64,000 nucleotides of DNA from assembly GCA_964016885.1 (NCBI GenBank), contig OZ024756.1:2480001-2544000 (forward strand), written 5' to 3'. This document shows positions 1 to 10,800 of this stretch, piece after piece. Position numbers and translations under genes: made by a program. This stretch comes from Eledone cirrhosa (lineage: Eukaryota). Every line of letters starts with the position of its first letter. The first letter of the stretch is position 1. The notes under the pieces were generated by a model. It saw nothing but the letters and a program-made list of their open reading frames with translations, made no database searches and had not been told where the DNA came from.

Positions 1-36
1 CTTAAACTTTAATCTGTTATTTTAATAAATAAATAA

Positions 37-82
<46 letters not shown>

Positions 83-153
83 GATATATATATAAGGGTG
101 AAAGCAGCGAATCTTTGCTTAAACTTTAATCTGTTATTTTAATAAATAAATAA

Positions 154-223
<70 letters not shown>

Positions 224-294
224 GATATATATATAAGGGTGAAAGCAGCGAATCTTTGCTTAAACTTTAATCTGTTATTTTAATAAATAAATAA

Positions 295-366
<72 letters not shown>

Positions 367-464
367 GATATATATATAAGGGTGAAAGCAGCGAATCTTT
401 GCTTAAACTTTAATCTGTTATTTTAATAAATAAATAAATAAATATATATATATATATATATATA
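1..464 (+). repeat. Tandem composite minisatellite: 78-bp core (GGGATATATATATAAGGGTGAAAGCAGCGAATCTTTGCTTAAACTTTAATCTGTTATTTTAA(TAAA)n) plus variable (TA)n; 3 full copies and 1 partial, runs off the window edge
   Basis: Identical cores start at 81, 222 and 365 (partial copy at 1-41). Periods are 141 and 143 bp and differ only in (TA)n length. Confidence 0.95.
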
Positions 465-961
465 GGAACCAGTAAGACCCCGACAGCTGAGCTCAAGCCG
501 TTTCGACGGCTAATTCTGGACTAAATGAAAATTTATCCTGGTATTTAAATAGCCGATCTTCTCAAGGGGTAATTCCATATATGGTCAAAGTGATTGTCAA
601 AAATCAGTAGTAATTCTGTGGTTGCAAATTAGTAGGGGAGATGGTGGCTAAACCTGCCAGTAGGAGAAAGAGGGGAGGGGTGGAGTAGACCCAATCAAGC
701 GTTGGTAGTGCCAGCTACAGCTGGGCATGAGGTCAAAGAAGATACAGGGGAGGGGGAGGGGGAGGAAGTCGGAACGGTAGGTAGAACAAAGGGGGGTAGA
801 AATAGGAAAGAAAAAATACTGAGAGTGAAGAAAAGCAAATAAGTGTAAAGAAAAAAGTAAAGTAAATTAAATTCTACGACCTAGGTGTCAGGCTATTGTT
901 AGGCGAGAATAAAATAAAGAAAGAAAGAAAGAAGTAAATAAATAAATAAATAAATAAATAA
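462..961 (-). repeat. Left arm of ~500-bp inverted repeat (hammerhead-bearing, Penelope-like pLTR candidate)
   Basis: Reverse complement of 1354-1856. By eye it differs only by two single-G homopolymer indels, one AAAG unit and (TAAA)n length. Confidence 0.95.
477..570 (-). ncRNA. Type I hammerhead ribozyme (U3-A8 core variant), minus-strand copy
   Basis: Exact reverse complement of 1748-1841. Predicted cleavage after GUC (C at position 482, minus strand). Confidence 0.8.
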
Positions 962-1353
962 GGAAATAAGTAAAAGAACTAGGTGGGACGGATAGGCAAG
1001 GACCCTTTTAAGAGGTATAAGTACGTAAATGATACGGTGACGGGTCAACAAAAGGGGCCAAAATACTAAAGAGACTACCACGAAATAAACAATAAAGGTT
1101 TCCATCCCGGGCCAGCAACGACCCAGTGCAGTAAAGTGAACTTGTACGAGATAATAATTCTGAGTCCCGAGAAAAATATATACTAATGCTAACTCTAAAA
1201 GATCTAAAACATGAAAGTTCGTACGAAATAAAGGTAGAATACGGAGAAATAAATTCAGAATCCACCCCGCCCAGAAGAAAAGCGAAGCAAGAAATACTGA
1301 AACGAAAAAATAAGGCATAAGTGCCACTAAGAAATATAGAGGGCACAGAGAAA

Positions 1354-1354
1354 T

Positions 1355-1389
<35 letters not shown>

Positions 1390-1856
1390 CTTCTTTCTTT
1401 CTTTATTTTATTCTCGCCTAACAATAGCCTGACACCTAGGTCGTAGAATTTAATTTACTTTACTTTTTTCTTTACACTTATTTGCTTTTCTTCACTCTCA
1501 GTATTTTTTCTTTCCTATTTCTACCCCCTTTGTTCTACCTACCGTTCCGACTTCCTCCCCCTCCCCCTCCCCTGTATCTTCTTTGACCTCATGCCCAGCT
1601 GTAGCTGGCACTACCAACGCTTGATTGGGTCTACTCCACCCCTCCCCTCTTTCTCCTACTGGCAGGTTTAGCCACCATCTCCCTACTAATTTGCAACCAC
1701 AGAATTACTACTGATTTTTGACAATCACTTTGACCATATATGGAATTACCCCTTGAGAAGATCGGCTATTTAAATACCAGGATAAATTTTCATTTAGTCC
1801 AGAATTAGCCGTCGAAACGGCTTGAGCTCAGCTGTCGGGGTCTTACTGGTTCCTAT
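1354..1856 (+). repeat. Right arm of ~500-bp inverted repeat
   Basis: Starts in (TTTA)n, ends ...CTGGTTCCTAT; reverse complement of 462-961. Confidence 0.95.
1748..1841 (+). ncRNA. Type I hammerhead ribozyme (U3-A8 core variant), plus-strand copy
   Basis: Helix I ACCCC(1748-52)/GGGGT(1837-41); core TTGAGAA(1753-59); helix II GA(T)CGGCTA(1760-68)/TAGCCGTC(1806-13); GAAA(1814-17); helix III ACGGCT(1817-22)/AGCTGT(1830-35) with loop TGAGCTC; cleavage triplet GTC (C1836). Confidence 0.8.
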
Positions 1857-1959
1857 TACCCACTCTACTACCTCAAGTATTGAGTACTTTGGTGCGTTAT
1901 GGTCCACCTGGTTCCTTACCACATTTCCTTCGTTATATATAACGATAATTTTTGTTATC

Positions 1960-1961
<2 letters not shown>

Positions 1962-2043
<82 letters not shown>

Positions 2044-2137
2044 TTATTTATTTATTAAAATAACAGATTAAAGTTTAAGCAAAGATTCGCTGCTTTCACC
2101 CTTATATATATATCCCATATATATATATATATATATA
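1962..2137 (-). repeat. (TA)n tract plus inverted copy of the 78-bp minisatellite core (2039-2116) plus (TA)n
   Basis: 2039-2116 is the reverse complement of 81-158 / 365-442. Confidence 0.93.
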
Positions 2138-2223
2138 CAATGATAAAAGACTTGCCGAGTGCTTTGAATCAGTTATAAACATTTATATTTGTTGAATTAC
2201 CAACAAATTGAATATCCCTTTTG

Positions 2224-2225
<2 letters not shown>

Positions 2226-2270
<45 letters not shown>

Positions 2271-2284
2271 TTGTGTGTGTATAT
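2226..2284. repeat. Compound microsatellite (TA)n(TG)n
   Basis: Directly visible. Confidence 0.95.
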
Positions 2285-2377
2285 AGGGTCAGACTGTCTG
2301 GGTGAATGAAATACATAGATACTGTGCAGATAAGCAGATTGATATATTTGCAGATATGCAGTTTTAAGTTGTGACTG

Positions 2378-2381
<4 letters not shown>

Positions 2382-2459
<78 letters not shown>

Positions 2460-2549
2460 TATTATGTGCGTGTATATATGTATGTGTATGTATATATGTG
2501 TATATATGCATACGTATATATGAATGTGTATATATGTATTTATGTATGT

Positions 2550-2598
<49 letters not shown>
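2382..2598. repeat. Compound microsatellite: (TA)n, degenerate TA/TG mix, (TA)n
   Basis: Directly visible; source of the IYIY ORFs. Confidence 0.95.
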
Positions 2599-2601
<3 letters not shown>

Positions 2602-3135
2602 TGTGGGTGAACAGAGATGATTGGAATGCATTTAAGTACATATATAGGTATACAGATATACATGTAGACAGATAAGCAGAATGAATGTAGTGGAATGGAA
2701 ACAACCATTCAGATGAGTATTCAGTGATTAAGACTGGCGGCAGGTAGATAGAGAAGAAACCTATAAAGAAGGAAGCTAGAAAGATAGATATATTGACTTA
2801 GAAATAGACTAGTAGTGAGATATCAGAATTGATAGACAACCGTATTACATGCCTCAATCAGATCTAAGAAGAAGAAGTAAAGAGAAAGAAGGAAGAAATG
2901 AAGAACTGAATGCCTAATTAATTGGAGTCGGCTTTCAACTTCCTCTCATTAACTACAAAAGCTGATGTTAAACTCATCAAAAATTATTTAATAAGTGCCA
3001 GATTCCTCCTTATCGTTGACATTACCATCACATCACATATTTCTCCTATTTGACCTCTAACAAATCAAATCTAGACTAGATTCACTCGAAATTAATGTTC
3101 GGCCATTTTGATTTATTTTAATGTTACATACGAAT

Positions 3136-3360
3136 ATAATAATAATTCCTAGTATAGGCACAAGGCCAGTAATTTGGGCGGAGGGAAATGTCGATTAAAG
3201 CGACCCCGGTGTGTGACTGGTACTTTATTTTCTCGACCCCGTAGGGAAGAAAGACAAAGCTAACCTCGCTGGGATTTTAACTTAGAACGTAAAAGGCCGT
3301 AACTCCATACTACGAAGTATGGTGTCCGACGATCTACCGATACTGCCAATCCACTCCACT
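3136..3360 (-). mobile_element. tRNA-derived SINE with Meta-like central domain, near full length (copy 1, long form)
   Basis: Minus strand reads A box TGGCAGTATCGG, degenerate B box GTTAAAATCC, core ...CTTTGTCTTTCTTCCCTACGGGGTCGAGAAAATAAAGTACCAG, 3' GGCCTTGTGCC and (ATT)n tail. Resembles octopus SINE/MetaSINE consensus from memory. Confidence 0.8.
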
Positions 3361-3364
3361 CAAA

Positions 3365-3409
<45 letters not shown>

Positions 3410-3548
3410 TATAATAATTGTTTCTACTTTTGGCACAAGGCCAGCAATTACCCAGTACATTATTTTACTAGTACTTTATTTTATCGACCCCGTAAGGATG
3501 AAAGGCAAAGTTAACCTCGGCGGGATTTGAACTCAGACCATAACGGGC
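3365..3548 (-). mobile_element. SINE copy 2 (short form, 5'-truncated) with expanded (ATT)n tail at 3365-3419
   Basis: Minus strand: B box GTTCAAATCC, GCCTTTCATCCTTACGGGGTCGATAAAATAAAGTAC; similarity stops at ~3548, A box missing. Confidence 0.8.
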
Positions 3549-3551
3549 TCT

Positions 3552-3960
3552 CCCTCTAATAGTGATAATAAATCTAAAGGCTTCCGAAAGCTCAATAAAT
3601 ATAAAAATCTTGCAATTGAAATTGAGAAAATGTTGGATCTTAAAAGCCTGTCTAAATACCAGTGATAGTCAGTGAACTTGGAATGATAGAAACAGGAAAC
3701 TGAAAATATTTGGTCCGGATACCTGGAAAGCCGTCTCTGCTGCAAGAGATACAGAAAATGGTGCTGACTGGTACTGTCCATGTAGGACATTATCAATTTA
3801 TATACCTTGCAAAGACATTTACTGTTATGTGTACCTTTGTGGTATCATTTGTGTGACAGTTGATTGAAAATTGTGTGGATTATCAAATTTGTCTCAGGTC
3901 TCACGTGGTTTTATATGGGAAAGAAGCAGAATTTGAAAGGAATTTTCAAATAATAATAAT
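3552..3960 (+). mobile_element. Decayed 3' end of R4/Dong-like non-LTR retrotransposon (restriction-like endonuclease C-terminus, 3' UTR, (TAA)n)
   Basis: Manual translation: PSNSDNKSKGFRKLNKYKNLAIEIEKMLDLK (3552-3644), frameshift, IPVIVSELGMIETGN*KYLVRIPGKPSLLQEIQKMVLTGTVH (3656-3781). Matches the recalled R4/Dong motif KxxKYxDLxxEIxxMW...IPVIVGALG...EIQKxxLxGTAH. Ends in TAATAATAAT. Confidence 0.75.
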
Positions 3961-4143
3961 TGTTTCTACTTTTGGCACAAGGCCAGCAATTACCCCAGTG
4001 TATTACTGGTACTTTATGTTATCGACCTCGTAAGGATGAAAGGCAAAGTTAACCATGACGGGATTTGAACTCAGACCCTAAAGGGCCGTAACTCTATGAT
4101 GCTAAGCATGTCATCCGACCCTCTACCGATACTGCCAATTCAC
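3949..4143 (-). mobile_element. SINE copy 3 (short form)
   Basis: A box TGGCAGTATCGG, B box GTTCAAATCC, Meta-like core and (ATT)n tail on minus strand; shares an internal deletion with copy 2. Confidence 0.8.
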
Positions 4144-4355
4144 AATAGTTTCTGATTTAGGCTCAAGGCCAGCCATCGGGGGGAGGGGAAAGTCGATTAA
4201 ATCGAGTCCAGTGTGTGACTGGTACTTTATTTTATCGACCCCGTATGGATGAAAGGCAAAGCTAACCAAGGCGGGATTTGAAATCAGAACTTAAAGGACC
4301 GTAACTCTATGCTGAAAAGCGTGGTGTCTGACGCTCTACCGATACTGCTAATTCA
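4144..4355 (-). mobile_element. SINE copy 4 (long form)
   Basis: A box TAGCAGTATCGG, B-box-like ATTTCAAATCC, GCCTTTCATCCATACGGGGTCGATAAAATAAAGTACCAG; abuts copy 3 head-to-tail. Confidence 0.8.
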
Positions 4356-4485
4356 GTACGGGCCCAGAGTAACATTGCAAACACTATCAATATAGGGGTT
4401 ACAATACATACAATACATGTGTTGCTGGACAAAGCTATACAGAAACGAGAACAACAACAAGGACGACTTAGATAGATAGAAAGAA

Positions 4486-4549
4486 CCGAAGTACACTTTG
4501 CTTTCAATCCTTTCATGTTCGTAAGAAAAGTAACAGTCAAGTACTAGAG
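4486..4549 (+). mobile_element. Highly degraded SINE core fragment (copy 5, opposite orientation)
   Basis: CCGAAGTACACTTTGCTTTCAATCCTTTCATGTTCGTAAGAAAAGTAACAGTC aligns to the SINE sense core CCGAGGTTAACTTTGCCTTTCATCCTTACGGGGTCGATAAAATAAAGTACCAGTC. Confidence 0.55.
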
Positions 4550-4567
4550 ATAATTCATTGTCTATAT

Positions 4568-4777
4568 CAGGCATGTCAAACTGAGGGTCATCCGAGAGCC
4601 AGATGGGTCACATATGTATTGTTTGAGGGCCTAATTGCGCACATTACAACTAATGCATTATATATTTTATATTACGAAGATAAAATATGCTGCCGCTGTA
4701 AAAAACCTTTTTGCGGGCCGCAGGTGTGTTTGCAAAGGGTCGCATTCGGCGCGCGGACCGCATGCTTGACGTGCCTG
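4568..4777. mobile_element. Non-autonomous hAT (Charlie-like) MITE, 210 bp
   Basis: TIRs CAGGCATGTCAAAC / GCTTGACGTGCCTG (12/14 match), subterminal GCGGGCCGCA-type motifs, degenerate TSD GTCTATAT / (G)TCTATCT resembling the Charlie NTCTANAN target. Confidence 0.75.
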
Positions 4778-4896
4778 TCTATCTCCTTCGAACATTCCCT
4801 CAATCGCACTCTTTTTCTCTGGAAGACGGGGAGATGGGATGGGCTCCGCTATTTGGGACGGGCTCTGCCACTTGTGATGGGTTAAATTACCCATTA

Positions 4897-7800
4897 AGTG
4901 CATGTCAAGTCGGTGTCACTACTACTGCAGTGCATGTCAAGTCAGTGTCCCTACTACTGAAGTGTATGTCAAGTCAGTATCACTACTACTGCAGTGTATG
5001 TCAACTCACTGTCACTACTACTGCAGTGTATGTCAAGTCAGTGTCACTACTACTGCAGTGTATGTCAAGTCAGTGTCAGTACTACTGAAGTGTATGTCAA
5101 GTCAGTACCACTACTACTAAAGTGTATGTCAAGTCGGTGTCACTACTACTGCAGTCCATGTCAAGTCGGTGTCACTACTACTGCAGAGTATGTCAAGAAA
5201 GTGTCACTACTACTGAAGTGTATGTCAAGTCGGTGTCACTACTACTGCAGTGTATGTCAAGTCAGTGTCACTACTACTGCAGTGTATGTCAAGTCAGTAC
5301 CACTACTATTGAAGTGTATGTCAAGTCTGTACCACTACTACTGCAGTGTATGTCAAGTCAGTGTCACTACTACTGCAGTGCATGTCAAGTCAGTGTCACT
5401 ACTACTGCAGTGTATGTCAAGTCAGTGTCACTACTACTGCAGTGTATGTCAAGTCAGTGTCACTACTACTGCAGTGTATGTCAAGTCAGTGTCACTACTA
5501 CTGCAGTGTATGTCAAGTCAGTGTCACTACTACTGCAGTGTATGTCAAGTCAGTGTCACTACTACTGGAGTGTATGTCAAGTCGGTGTCACTACTACTGC
5601 AGTGTATGTCAAGTCAGTACCACTACTACTGCAGTGTATGTGAAGTCAGTACCACTACTACTGCAGTGTATGTCAAGTCAGTGTCACTACTACTGCAGTG
5701 TATGTCAAGTCAGTGCCACTACTACTGCAGTGTATGTCAAGTCAGTGTCACTACTACTGCAGTGTATGTCAAGTCAGTACCACTACTACTGCAGTGTATG
5801 TCAAGTCAGTGTCACTACTACTGCAGTGTATGTCAAGTCAGTGTCACTACTACTGCAGTGTATGTCAAGTCGGTGTCAATACTACTGCAGTCCATGTCAA
5901 GTCAGTGTCACTACTACTGCAGTGTATGTCAAGTCAGTGTCACTACTACTGCAGTGTATGTCAAGTCAGTACCACTACTACTGCAGTGTATGTCAAGTCA
6001 GTGTCACTACTACTGAAGTGTATGTGAAGTCACTGTCACTACTACTGCAGTGTAAGTCAAGTCAGTGTCACTACTACTGCAGTGTATGTCAAGTCAGTAT
6101 CACTACTACTGCAGTGCATGTCAAGTCAGTGTCACTACTACTGAAGTGTATGTCAAGTCAGTGCCACTACTACTGCAGTGTATGTCAAGTCAGTGTCACT
6201 ACTACTGAAGTGTATGTCAAGTGAGTGCCACTACTACTGCAGTGTATGTCAAGTCAGTACCACTACTACTGCAGTGTATGTCAAGTCAGTGTCACCACTA
6301 CTGCAGTGTATGTCAAGTCAGTGCCACTACTACTGCAGTGTATGTCATGTCAGTGTCACTACTACTGCAGTGCATGTCAAGTCAGTGTCACTACTACTGC
6401 AGTGTATGTCAAGTCAGTGTCACTACTACTGCAGTGTATGTCAAGTCAGTGTCACTACTACTGCAGTGTATGTCAAATCAGTGTCACTACTACTGCAGTG
6501 TATGTCAAGTCAGTGTCACTACTACTGAAGTGTATGTCAAGTCAGTGTCACTACTACTGCAGTGTATGTCAAGTCAGTGTCACTACTACTGCAGTGTATG
6601 TCAAGTCAGTACCACTACTACTGCAGTGTATGTCAAGTCAGTGTCACTACTACTGAAGTGTATGTGAAGTCACTGTCACTACTACTGCAGTGTAAGTCAA
6701 GTCAGTGTCACTACTACTGCACTGTATGTCAAGTCAGTATCACTACTAATTGCAGTGCATGTCAAGTCAGTGTCACTACTACTGAAGTGTATGTCAAGTC
6801 AGTGCCACTACTACTGCAGTGTATGTCAAGTCAGTGTCACTACTACTGCAGTGTATGTCAAGTCAGTGTCACTACTACTGAAGTGTATGTCAAGTCAGTG
6901 CCACTACTACTGCAGTGTATGTCAAGTCGGTGTCACTACTACTGCAGTGTATGTCAAGTCAGTGCCACTACTACTGCAGTGTATGTCAAGTCAGTGTCAC
7001 TACTACTGCACTGTATGTCAAGTCAGTATCACTACTAATTGCAGTGCATGTCAAGTCAGTGTCACTACTACTGAAGTGTATGTCAAGTCAGTGCCACTAC
7101 TACTGCAGTGTATGTCTAGTCAGTGTCACTACTACTGCAGTGTATGTCAAGTCAGTGTCACTACTACTGAAGTGTATGTCAAGTCAGTGTCACTACTACT
7201 GAAGTGTATGTCAAGTCAGTGTCACTACTACTGCAGTGCATGTCAAGTCAGTGTCACTACTACTGCAGTGTATGTCAAGTCAGTGTCACTACTACTGCAG
7301 TGTATGTCAAATCAGTGTCACTACTACTGCACTGTATGTCAAGTCAGTATCACTACTAATTGCAGTGCATGTCAAGTCAGTGTCACTACTACTGCAGTGC
7401 ATGTCAAGTCAGTGCCACTACTACTGCAGTGTATGTCAAGTCAGTGTCACTACTACTGCAGTGTATGTCAAGTCAGTGTCACTACTACTGAAGTGTATGT
7501 CAAGTCAGTGTCACTACTACTGAAGTGTATGTCAAGTCAGTGTCACTACTACTGCAGTGTATGTCAAGTCAGTGTCACTACTACTGCAGTGTATGTCAAG
7601 TCAGTGTCACTACTACTGCAGTGTATGTCAAGTCAGTGTCACTACTACTGCAGTGTATGTCAAATCAGTGTCACTACTACTGCAGTGTATGTCAAGTCAG
7701 TGTCACTACTACTGCAGTGTATGTCAAGTCAGTGTCACTACTACTGCAGTGCATGTCAAGTCAGTGTCACTACTACTGAAGTGTATGTCAAGTCGGTGTC

Positions 7801-10800
7801 ACTACTACTGCAGTGTATGTCAAGTCAGTCTCACTACTACTGCAGTGTATGTCAAGTCAGTGTCACTACTACTGCAGTGTATGTCAAGTCAGTGTCACCA
7901 CTACTGCAGTGTATGTCAAGTCAGTGCCACTACTACTGCAGTGTATGTCAAGTCAGTGTCAGTACTACTGCAGTGCATGTCAAGTCAGTGTCACTACTGC
8001 TGCAGTGTATGTCAAGTCAGTGTCACTAATACTGCAGTGTATGTCAAGTCGGTGTCATTACTACTGAAGTGTATCTCAAGTCAGTGTCACTACTACTGCA
8101 GTGTATGTCAAGTCAGTGTCACTACTACTGCAGTGTATGTCAAGTCAGTGTCACTACTACTGCAGTGTATGTCAAGTCAGTGTCACTACTACTGAAGTGT
8201 ATGTCAAGTCAGTGTCACTACTACTGCAGTGTATGTCAAGTCAGTGTCACTACTACTGCAGTGTATGTCAAGTCGGTGTCACTACTACTGCAGTGTATGT
8301 CAAATCAGTACCACTACTACTGCAGTGTATGTCAAGTCAGTGTCACTACTACTGCAGTGTATGTCAAGTCAGTGTCACTACTACTGCAGTGTATGTCAAG
8401 TCAGTGCCACTACTACTGCAGTGTATGTCAAGTCAGTGTCACTACTACTGCAGTGTATATCAAGTCAGTACCACTATTACTGCAGTGTATGTCAAGTCAG
8501 TGTCACTACTACTGCAGTGTATGTCAAGTCAGTGCCACTACTACTGCAGTGTATGTCAAGTCGGTGTCACTACTACTGCAGTCCATGTCAAGTCGGTGTC
8601 ACTACTACTGCAGTGCATGTCAAGTCAGCGTCACTACTACTGAAGTGTATGTCAAGTCAGTGCCACTACTACTGCAGTGTATGTCAAGTCAGTGTCACTA
8701 CTACTGCAGTGCATGTCAAGTCAGTGTCACTACTACTGCAGTGTATGTCAAGTCAGTGTCACTACTACTGAAGTGTATGTCAAGTCAGTGCCACTACTAC
8801 TGCAGTTTATGTCAAGTCAGTACCACTACTACTGCAGTGTATGTCAAGTCAGTGTCACCACTACTGCAGTGTATGTCAAGTCAGTGCCACTACTACTGCA
8901 ATGTATGTCAAGTCAGTGTCACTACTACTGCAGTGCATGTCAAGTCAGTGTCACTACTACGGCAGTGTATGTCAAGTCAGTGTCACTACTACTGCAGTGT
9001 ATGTGAAGTCAGTGTCACTACTACTGAAGTGTATGTCAAGTGAGTGTCACTGCTACTGCAGTGCATGTGAAGTCAGTGTCACTACTACTGAAGTGTATGT
9101 CAAGTCAGTGTCACTACTACTGAAGTGTATGTCAAGTCAGTGTCACTACTACTGCAGTGTATGTCAAGTCAGTGCCACTACTACTGCAGTGTATGTCAAG
9201 TCGGTGTCACTACTACTGCAGTGTATGTCAAGTCAGTACCACTACTACTGCAGTGTATGTCAAGTCAGTGTCACTACTACTGCAGTGTATGTCAAGTCAG
9301 TGTCACTACTACTGCAGTGCATGTCAAGTCAGTGTCACTACTACTGCAGTGTATGTCAAGTCAGTGTCACTACTACTGCAGTGTATGTCGAGTCAGTGTC
9401 ACTACTACTGCAGTGTATGTCAAGTCAGTGTCACTACTACTGCAGTGTATGTCAAGTCAGTGTCACTACTACTGAAGTGTATGTCAAGTCAGTGTCACTA
9501 CTACTGCAGTGTATGTCAAGTCAGTGTCACTACTACTGGAGTGTATGTCAAGTCGGTGTCACTACTACTGCAGTGTATGTCAAGTCAGTACCACTACTAC
9601 TGCAGTGTATGTGAAGTCAGTACCACTACTACTGCAGTGTATGTCAAGTCAGTGTCACTACTACTGCAGTGTATGTCAAGTCAGTGCCACTACTACTGCA
9701 GTGTATGTCAAGTCAGTGTCACTACTACTGCAGTGTATGTCAAGTCAGTACCACTACTACTGCAGTGTATGTCAAGTCAGTGTCACTACTACTGCAGTGT
9801 ATGTCAAGTCAGTGCCACTACTACTGCAGTGTATGTCAAGTCGGTGTCACTACTACTGCAGTCCATGTCAAGTCAGTGTCACTACTACTGCAGTGTATGT
9901 CAAGTCAGTGTCACTACTACTGCAGTGTATGTCAAGTCAGTACCACTACTACTGCAGTGTATGTCAAGTCAGTGTCACTACTACTGAAGTGTATGTGAAG
10001 TCAGTGTCACTACTACTGCAGTGTATGTCAAGTCAGTGTCACTACTACTGCAGTGTATGTCAAGTCAGTATCACTACTACTGCAGTGTATGTCAAGTCAG
10101 TGTCACTACTACTGCAGTGTATGTCAAGTCAGTGTCACCACTACTGCAGTGTATGTCAAGTCAGTGCCACTACTACTGCAGTGTATGTCAAGTCAGTGTC
10201 AGTACTACTGCAGTGCATGTCAAGTCAGTGTCACTACTGCTGCAGTGTATGTCAAGTCAGTGTCACTAATACTGCAGTGTATGTCAAGTCAGTGTCATTA
10301 CTACTGCAGTGTATCTCAATTCAGTGTCACTACTACTGCAGTGTATGTCAAGTCAGTGTCACTACTACTGCATGTCAAGTCAGTGTCACTACTACTGCAG
10401 TGTATGTCAAGTCAGTGTCACTACTACTGCAGTGTATGTCAAGTCGGTGTCACTACTACTGCAGTGTATGTCAAGTCAGGACCACTACTACTGCAGTGTA
10501 TGTCAAGTCAGTGTCACTACTACTGCAGTGTATGTCAAGTCAGTGTCACTACTACTGCAGTGTATGTCAAGTCAGTGCCACTACTACTGCAGTGTATGTC
10601 AAGTCAGTGTCACTACTACTGCAGTGTATGTCAAGTCAGTACCACTATTACTGCAGTGTATGTCAAGTCGGTGTCACTACTACTGCAGTGTATGTCAAGT
10701 CAGTGCCACTACTACTGCAGTGTATGTCAAGTCGGTGTCACTACTACTGCAGTCCATGTCAAGTCGGTGTCACTACTACTGAAGTGTATGTCAAGTCAGT

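Follow-up and report, generated by a model that had tools for sequence, protein, structure and literature searches.

Penelope-like elements (PLEs) that carry hammerhead ribozymes are the closest described systems to a pair of hammerhead motifs located in a 64,000-nucleotide (nt) stretch of Eledone cirrhosa DNA (GenBank assembly GCA_964016885.1, contig OZ024756.1, positions 2,480,001 to 2,544,000 of the forward strand; hereafter the window). PLEs of the Hydra clade (PMC8557442; e.g. Hydra-1_Obim and Penelope-13_HM) resemble the window element in their single open reading frame (ORF), which joins a reverse transcriptase (RT) to a C-terminal GIY-YIG endonuclease, in RWK-like and DKT motifs, a CxCX5C linker, the lack of a CCHH motif, CxxC and CxH motifs and (TA)n targets, as well as in a hammerhead near the 3' end; in Penelope-13_HM, an inverted 5'-truncated copy likewise produces two hammerheads on opposite strands. 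The Hydra hammerheads in File S2 of that source, however, all begin with CTGA and combine a loop II of ~3–10 nt with a short helix III in units mostly below 3 kb, whereas the window family pairs U3 with A8 in the core, its loop II measures 37 nt, its helix III has 6 bp and a loop of 7 nt, and its unit is ~3.5 kb long; compared by eye, it differs from Hydra-1_Obim in both hammerhead and protein. The minimal hammerheads of Cercyon PLEs in Schistosoma mansoni (PMC4209133) share U3-A8, a helix II of 7–8 bp, a helix I of 4–5 bp, an unpaired base near the start of helix II, a palindromic helix III region and close pairs on opposite strands. They lack a real helix III and need dimers, whereas the window motif can close helix III as a monomer and has a much larger loop II.

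Poseidon_Ac (PAc) of Anolis (PMC11167929) is similar in that two internal RT starts define a tail, both target strands are extended, the target is AT-rich and uncleaved RNA serves as the template. PAc belongs to the Poseidon clade, and its hammerhead overlaps the start codon, its RT starts lie in the ORF and its tail spans 30–40 nt, whereas in the window element the hammerhead and both starts precede the ATG, which is 231 nt from A1796, and the tail measures ~80 nt. Penelope of Drosophila virilis offers a precedent for an internal TATA-less promoter, with a start in the upstream pseudo-long terminal repeat (pLTR) and a need for a partial tandem arrangement (PMC2377424); in that element, the start is followed by an intron, with the hammerhead downstream (PMC4209133), whereas the start proposed for the window element lies inside loop II. 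Non-LTR retrozymes (PMC7229834; bioRxiv 10.64898/2026.07.22.740005) are PLE-related and share the type I hammerhead and a possible circular RNA intermediate, but they are short non-coding tandem repeats (PMC7229834). The window element instead codes for an RT and an endonuclease of its own, only half a ribozyme is present in its short copies, and it is not arranged as short non-coding tandem units that each contain a whole hammerhead.

The probable explanation of the locus as a whole is that the window carries U3-A8 hammerheads of a Penelope-like pLTR in the two arms of one insertion, with a likely transcription start, A1796, inside loop II. Both motifs (94/94 bases the same between 1748–1841 on the plus strand and the reverse complement of 477–570) are located inside one ~504-bp inverted repeat (465–967 / 1353–1856), the halves of which differ by small indels only, and the insertion is flanked by (TA)n. 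The short-end (S) arm corresponds to the 3' 888 nt of a full-length element at locus L034 with 96% identity, and the long-end (L) arm is 95% identical to the same element, with its true end at 1934–1941, where it overlaps the TA repeat. We have little doubt that the two motifs are the head-to-head arms of one 5'-truncated insertion of a young PLE (Table 1). Because a single insertion made the inverted repeat, they count as one observation and not as independent evidence. The pair in the window is likely an inert passenger, since no ORF is present, an RNA starting at A1796 would hold half a core, and in any read-through RNA the two arms would anneal to each other as a 500-bp duplex.

Table 1 Features of the Penelope-like insertion and its hammerhead motifs in the window.
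Feature	Position	Strand	Remarks
S arm, 5'-truncated copy of the PLE 3' untranslated region/pLTR	465..1352	-	888 nt; ends ...GGTTCCTA against (TA)n
L arm, 5'-truncated pLTR copy plus tail	1353..1941	+	589 nt; head-to-head with the S arm
PLE tail between two putative reverse-transcription starts	1857..1936	+	~80 nt; L arm only
Type I hammerhead motif	1748..1841	+	U3-A8 core; predicted cleavage after C1836
Second, identical hammerhead motif	477..570	-	opposite arm; predicted cleavage after base 482
Helix I	ACCCC 1748-52 / GGGGT 1837-41	+	read from sequence
Core TTGAGAA	1753-59	+	read from sequence
Helix II	1760-68 / 1806-13	+	one bulged base; read from sequence
Loop II insert	1769..1805	+	37 nt; contains an extension of helix II, a predicted distal hairpin and the point where short copies begin
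Initiator-like motif TTAGT	1794..1798	+	A1796, which is base 522 on the minus arm, is the putative capped transcription start
GAAA	1814-17	+	read from sequence
Helix III with A15.1-U16.1	1818-22 / 1830-34	+	read from sequence
Helix III loop TGAGCTC	1823-29	+	read from sequence
Loop III palindrome TGAGCTCA	1823..1830	+	GAGCTC is the commonest sequence in 4/4 subfamilies
GUC triplet	C17 = 1836	+	read from sequence
Predicted helix I extension across an internal loop	1742-1747 with 1848-1853	+	RNAfold; the short 3' end lies just 3' of the extension

Three copies are found at locus L034, one inverted, one partial and one full-length, the last of which consists of a pLTR with a hammerhead, a 719-aa ORF and a second pLTR with a hammerhead. 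This arrangement bears out the assignment of the motif to a Penelope-like pLTR in an earlier note on this sequence, but not the retrozyme family suggested there, since the element is autonomous with its own RT and GIY-YIG ORF. Same-strand neighbours are spaced 3,523–3,569 bp apart in 7/8 cases, which gives the unit length of ~3.5 kb. The structure of the ORF protein (P0001) was predicted with a predicted local distance difference test (pLDDT) score of 92, and the top three Foldseek matches of the model were TERT structures (E 6e-8 to 2e-7), and other RTs ranked just below them. P0001 itself had no Pfam match and no PDB sequence match, and no RT match was obtained in Pfam for P0001, P0122 and three homologs or in a PDB profile search. 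Its C-terminal GIY-YIG domain was recognised by motif (VIY...AYIG near residues 590–607), and P0002, the best of 2,054 homologs, scored above the Pfam cut-off for GIY-YIG; the best homologs are mostly ~40% identical.

Compared with the Hydra motif checklist in section 11 of PMC8557442, P0001 contains RWR, DKT, CNCPDRSIC (CxCX5C), CNLC (CxxC) and CKH (CxH), with one Cys inside GIY-YIG, and has no CCHH; the reference Hydra proteins were compared by eye. The insertion target is (TA)n, as in the Hydra clade. The descriptive Hydra traits that differ are the length, generally below 3 kb versus ~3.5 kb here, and the canonical hammerhead versus the variant. The features of endonuclease-bearing (EN+) PLEs that were found include pLTRs with a hammerhead, partial tandem and inverted copies, and a tail at one end. 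As judged from its sequence, the element is an autonomous EN+ PLE with Hydra-clade protein motifs. All of the 150 scored matches to the ORF start in the 3.0-Gb assembly were 92–100% identical, many of them with open frames of ~784 codons, and the family is probably young and still mobile. Exact copies in the genome numbered 10,134 for the 3' half of the motif, 2,129 for the 5' core half and 5,710 for the tail. In run X1, the summed contig depth across L034:3808-4011, which is not a copy number, reached ~2 million over the 3' half of the hammerhead and the tail versus ~10 thousand in the 5' ORF; this contrast suggests that, taken over all subfamilies, short arms are far more numerous than the exact-match counts indicate. 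Runs X5 and X6, in which the shares are small, were left out of the evidence.

Insertion anatomy was parsed in 137 arms from loci in the first 48 Mb of contig C1, after removal of arms shorter than 25 nt and fragments caused by indels; most arms were retrieved by a pattern spanning the cleavage site and 30 by the tail alone. The 3' ends were located at 1856 in 55/137 arms and at 1941 in 56/137, and loose ends in contigs of other runs, at L034 3908 and 3988, match both positions. The 56 adjacent arm pairs comprised 48 L+S pairs, one S+S pair and seven unclassified pairs, and they displayed 43 different junctions, which rules out a single master short element. Two fixed 3' ends, with one S and one L arm per insertion, fit the two internal RT starts and two-strand extension described for the Anolis PLE (PMC11167929). 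At the 5' side, 102/137 arms start at 1792–1803, including 42 at 1796/97, with a single start in 1700–1791 and 10 long arms; 18 of the 30 tail-selected arms also start at 1792–1803. In most genomic copies the 5' boundary falls within loop II, a feature absent from the earlier note. The cleavage site was rejected as a template end, as none of the 137 arms and none of the 30 tail-selected arms start at 1835–1839; the latter result indicates that cleaved RNA is not a common template end.

All parts of the type I hammerhead previously described for the window, including U3-A8, the large loop II and GAGCUC in loop III, are present. Three helices surround the core with helix I open, and U4, G5, A6, A9, G12, A13, A14, A15.1-U16.1 and H17 are all in place. 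The hammerhead fold is the minimum-energy fold of the motif (-22.7 kcal/mol), with helix pair probabilities of 0.47–0.97, and a relaxed hammerhead descriptor produced one match in 968–1941 and 0/3000 in Markov-1 resamples. As anticipated, the core TTGAGAA is missed by CUGANGA patterns, and Rfam scans of 1–5000 and of 1730–1865 gave no hammerhead match at E<=10. Helix III comprises 6 bp including A15.1-U16.1, unlike the obligate-dimer minimal PLE hammerheads, in which it is absent or 1–2 bp long; the capacity to dimerize, also proposed earlier, is consistent with a predicted cofold energy of -61.9 kcal/mol versus -45.4 kcal/mol for two monomers. The U3-A8 variant, on the other hand, is not new: it is already published for PLE hammerheads (PMC4209133, PMC3088659), with ~1,300 matches in Schistosoma Cercyon (PMC4209133), and the same source reports long helix II and close opposite-strand pairs for PLE pLTR hammerheads. 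The ribozyme variant alone is a modest addition, known although not among the listed Hydra hammerheads, in a family missed by Rfam.

Conservation was assessed in an alignment of 40 distinct copies from four subfamilies (A, 5; A2, 6; B, 3; and C, 26) that are 60–65% identical (A versus C, 65%). The commonest base is the same across subfamilies in 10/10 fixed core columns, 6/6 palindrome columns, 9/10 helix I columns and the GUC triplet, while N7 varies and the distal loop II columns agree in 4/21 only. Helix positions are paired in 89.9% of 839 cells, and helix II includes two subfamily-level compensatory pairs, G-C/A-U and U-A/A-U. These covariation events are few, with 310/500 shuffles reaching the number of pairs with double changes. 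The 3-8 pair can be called compensated in most copies but not in amplified sublineages with C3.A8, G3.A8 and U3.G8. TTGAGAA was present in 100/100 young copies among the matches listed. The aligned copies show U-A in 14, U.G in 11, C-G in 9 and other states in 6, counts that are biased by sampling, as the query used to draw the subfamily C copies itself contained U3.G8. A sample taken regardless of core, consisting of the first 44 matches that read through, comprises 34 U-A, 6 C.A and 2 G.A copies and 2 without a core. Five of the C.A copies share diagnostic loop II bases, indicating that a sublineage with an unpaired 3.8 position still spread. The C3.A8 loci (L351, L356, L362, L367 and L368) and G3.A8 loci (L352 and L364) are all read-through copies. 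U3.G8 was not accepted as a proven intermediate, as it occurs in all three subgroups of subfamily C in a sample drawn with that query, and an alternative core register (C3 plus an inserted U) was not needed, as the relatives align without a gap. From these comparisons, the core appears conserved like that of a ribozyme, but 3-8 compensation is not strict.

On balance, it is more likely than not that the hammerhead cleaves under some condition, and it is likely active but weak or protein-assisted. Several results weigh against this reading: the stability of the motif fold is ordinary (z = -0.96; 32/200 shuffles equally stable), covariation amounts to few events, unpaired 3-8 states have spread, arms starting at the cleavage site are absent, and hammerhead mutants of the Anolis PLE leave insertion in vitro unaffected (PMC11167929). 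A substantial, though less favoured, alternative is that the hammerhead survives as a relic that cleaves weakly or not at all and is retained as a scaffold, either structural or for protein binding, with long insertions made from read-through multimeric RNA without cleavage. The amplified C3.A8, G3.A8 and U3.G8 states and the 0/30 tail-selected arms at the cleavage site would be expected of such a relic, as would the dispensable Anolis hammerhead, with no RNA ends at its site (PMC11167929), and the low in vitro activity of PLE hammerheads (PMC4209133). Against a relic, the other 10 core columns and GUC keep their commonest base across subfamilies that have otherwise diverged to 60–65% identity, with N7 free; positions 3 and 8 form a Watson-Crick pair in the family that is both youngest and commonest; and U3-A8, which occurs in nature, is reported to be active (PMC3088659, section 8).

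Within loop II, the 5' boundary is concentrated at a single base. Genome-wide, 5,799 matches have a non-T base before A1796; 8/71 inspected matches were read-through copies of a TCAGT subfamily, which leaves ~5,200 copies starting at A1796, and 4,212 copies read 7 nt past it. TYAGT is present at this position in 38/40 aligned copies amid divergent flanks, and it resembles the invertebrate initiator TCAGT, for which a literature search yielded no citation. In 33 curated rows, the base before A1796 was G in 20, C in 8 and A in 5 (p = 0.001 against 1/3 for G), and L286 and L290 carry the extra G on both arms. In L1 insertions, capped 5' ends are recognizable by an additional G (PMC11702581). Subfamily C then served to test the prediction (1,932 matches; arms sampled and read by eye). 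The 5' core was missing from 50/51 arms; the homologous A or G was the first base in 25 arms, another 15 began between a few and ~12 nt upstream of it, and 10 began downstream. Two of the rows are near-duplicates. The single-base pile-up, the conserved TYAGT, the untemplated G and the homologous starts in subfamily C together point to A1796 in loop II as the capped transcription start of the element, which we consider likely. A splice-acceptor reading of TTTAG/TCC was rejected, since the arms include A1796 and G1797, only 5/137 begin at T1798 and the upstream sequence showed no constant exon. Among the titles and abstract openings of the open-access papers listed in our searches, we found no report of a start site inside a PLE hammerhead, of strong-stop products or of cephalopod PLE hammerheads.

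Some observations argue against a start at A1796. The extra-G set was picked by eye from 71 rows, with read-through rows, blunt joins and subfamily-difference rows removed; in subfamily C, G precedes the A in 1/9 arms only; G is also found in 4/4 linker-bearing arms starting at 1801, which weakens the sign; and the starts are spread over 1792–1803, with a second hump at 1800–1802 (31/137). The 1792–1803 boundary could instead reflect RT stalling or an end-joining preference at the loop II hairpin of the same element, with no transcription start involved. The second hump is in line with this explanation, as are a predicted distal hairpin with its 3' strand over ~1792–1801, a blunt junction 1802/1796 that recurs in many rows, and the 24/30 ORF-bearing copies that read through A1796. 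We consider it unlikely, because ~5,200 copies share one base with a sharp upstream edge, an untemplated G is found in 20/33 rows, and subfamily C uses the same base though its loop II sequence and hairpin position differ. Moreover, stalling would affect the arms separately, yet arm lengths are correlated: in clusters with the 5' core on any arm, both arms carry the core in 28/62, versus 11.7% expected if independent (p = 5e-11), an expectation built from the counts of two different patterns.

With a capped start at A1796, the correlated arm lengths suggest that both arms are copied from one RNA, for which A1796 is either the end or an internal position. The ORF-bearing copies (n = 30, some from the same arrays) extend >100 nt upstream of A1796 in 24 cases, stop 3 nt upstream in one and start downstream in five, and both arms of the window insertion are read-through. 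These patterns suggest two template types, one capped and linear and the other circular or multimeric; a circle from hammerhead cleavage, as proposed for PLEs (PMC4209133), or a multimeric read-through RNA may serve equally as an endless template. If the element works as the Anolis PLE does in vitro, its endonuclease would cut both strands in (TA)n, and the two cut ends would each prime reverse transcription on a shared RNA, at one or the other of two internal sites. With the capped linear RNA as template, synthesis would reach the end of the RNA at A1796 once ~60 and ~140 nt had been copied, and head-to-head joining of the two complementary DNAs would give the majority insertion, which retains just the 3' half of the ribozyme. 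If the template has no end at A1796 (a circle or multimer), both arms would read through, as in the window, the ORF-bearing copies and the tandem arrays. The likely job of the ribozyme would be to cut unit-length RNA at C1836.

A more tentative extension, which we regard as possible but doubtful, concerns the messenger RNA (mRNA) itself. An mRNA starting at A1796 would carry the substrate half (GAAA, helix III, GUC and a helix I strand) at its 5' end and a whole hammerhead at its 3' end. The 3' hammerhead might cut itself at C1836, pair through the loop III palindrome with the 5' end of its own mRNA and cut it in trans, and ligation would then yield a unit-length circle. The predicted cofold of the 3' hammerhead product with the mRNA 5' end is hammerhead-like (-60.4 versus -43.9 kcal/mol for the separate molecules) and would allow trans-cleavage. 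Three observations count against this extension: a C3.A8 sublineage has spread, arms starting at the cleavage site were not seen, and the Anolis PLE can dispense with its hammerhead in vitro (PMC11167929). If it is true, the promoter would split the ribozyme by design: rolling-circle reverse transcription would rebuild the pLTR and tandem arrays, uncut capped RNA would lead to thousands of short palindromic insertions, and a trans-cleavage circle would account for the rebuilding of PLE pLTRs from a monomeric transcript.

A functional pair of divergent ribozymes, as the earlier note implied, or a non-autonomous retrozyme family is very improbable: two complete motifs with a palindromic loop III are present, but the copies point apart, would lie on different RNAs and appear to be by-products of one insertion, namely the usual inverted 5'-truncated copy (PMC8557442; Penelope-13_HM in File S2), the unit is ~3.5 kb and protein-coding versus a 150–450-bp non-coding repeat (PMC7229834), and ORF-bearing copies already contradict both.

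The insertion record is the useful part of these data, as it comprises thousands of near-identical insertions with two fixed RT starts, each giving one arm per insertion, and a single-base 5' boundary within a ribozyme. It makes two open questions on PLEs testable, namely the purpose of the hammerhead and the regeneration of pLTRs and tandems, and the natural C3-G8, U3.G8, U3-A8, C3.A8 and G3.A8 states in one lineage provide a series in which the cleavage rate can be compared with transposition success.

The insertion is surrounded by other repeats. The TA-rich flank at 1–464 (plus strand, in tandem) and 2040–2117 (minus strand) is the 3' end of a second Hydra-like PLE, of which full copies are found in L110–L139, L175 and L187, with at least 150 endonuclease matches. 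Its hammerhead-like motif reads CAGAAGA, with A at position 4, and has a short loop II, inside which the window copies begin; RNAfold gave no hammerhead fold for this motif. The right flank (1938–2117) is repeated in direct orientation at L031:9730-9977, just left of the window, and 1–464 contains inverted tandem copies of part of it; these flank repeats may result from a local rearrangement around the insertion or from an assembly effect. At L034, a 391-codon open frame (3–1175, minus strand), by eye an RT of an RTE-type long interspersed nuclear element, lies next to the PLE, which inserted beside it in (TA)n. A dispersed repeat resembling a short interspersed nuclear element is present in several copies, in the window at ~3150–3550 and 3960–4360, and a 32-bp satellite array extends from 4897 to 64000 and on into L033, with ~1,770 copies in register, 44% GC and a length of at least 69 kb. 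Another element at L031:~9300-9750 has inverted arms ending GGGATAAC...GTTATCCC within (TA)n and is possibly a further head-to-head PLE insertion.
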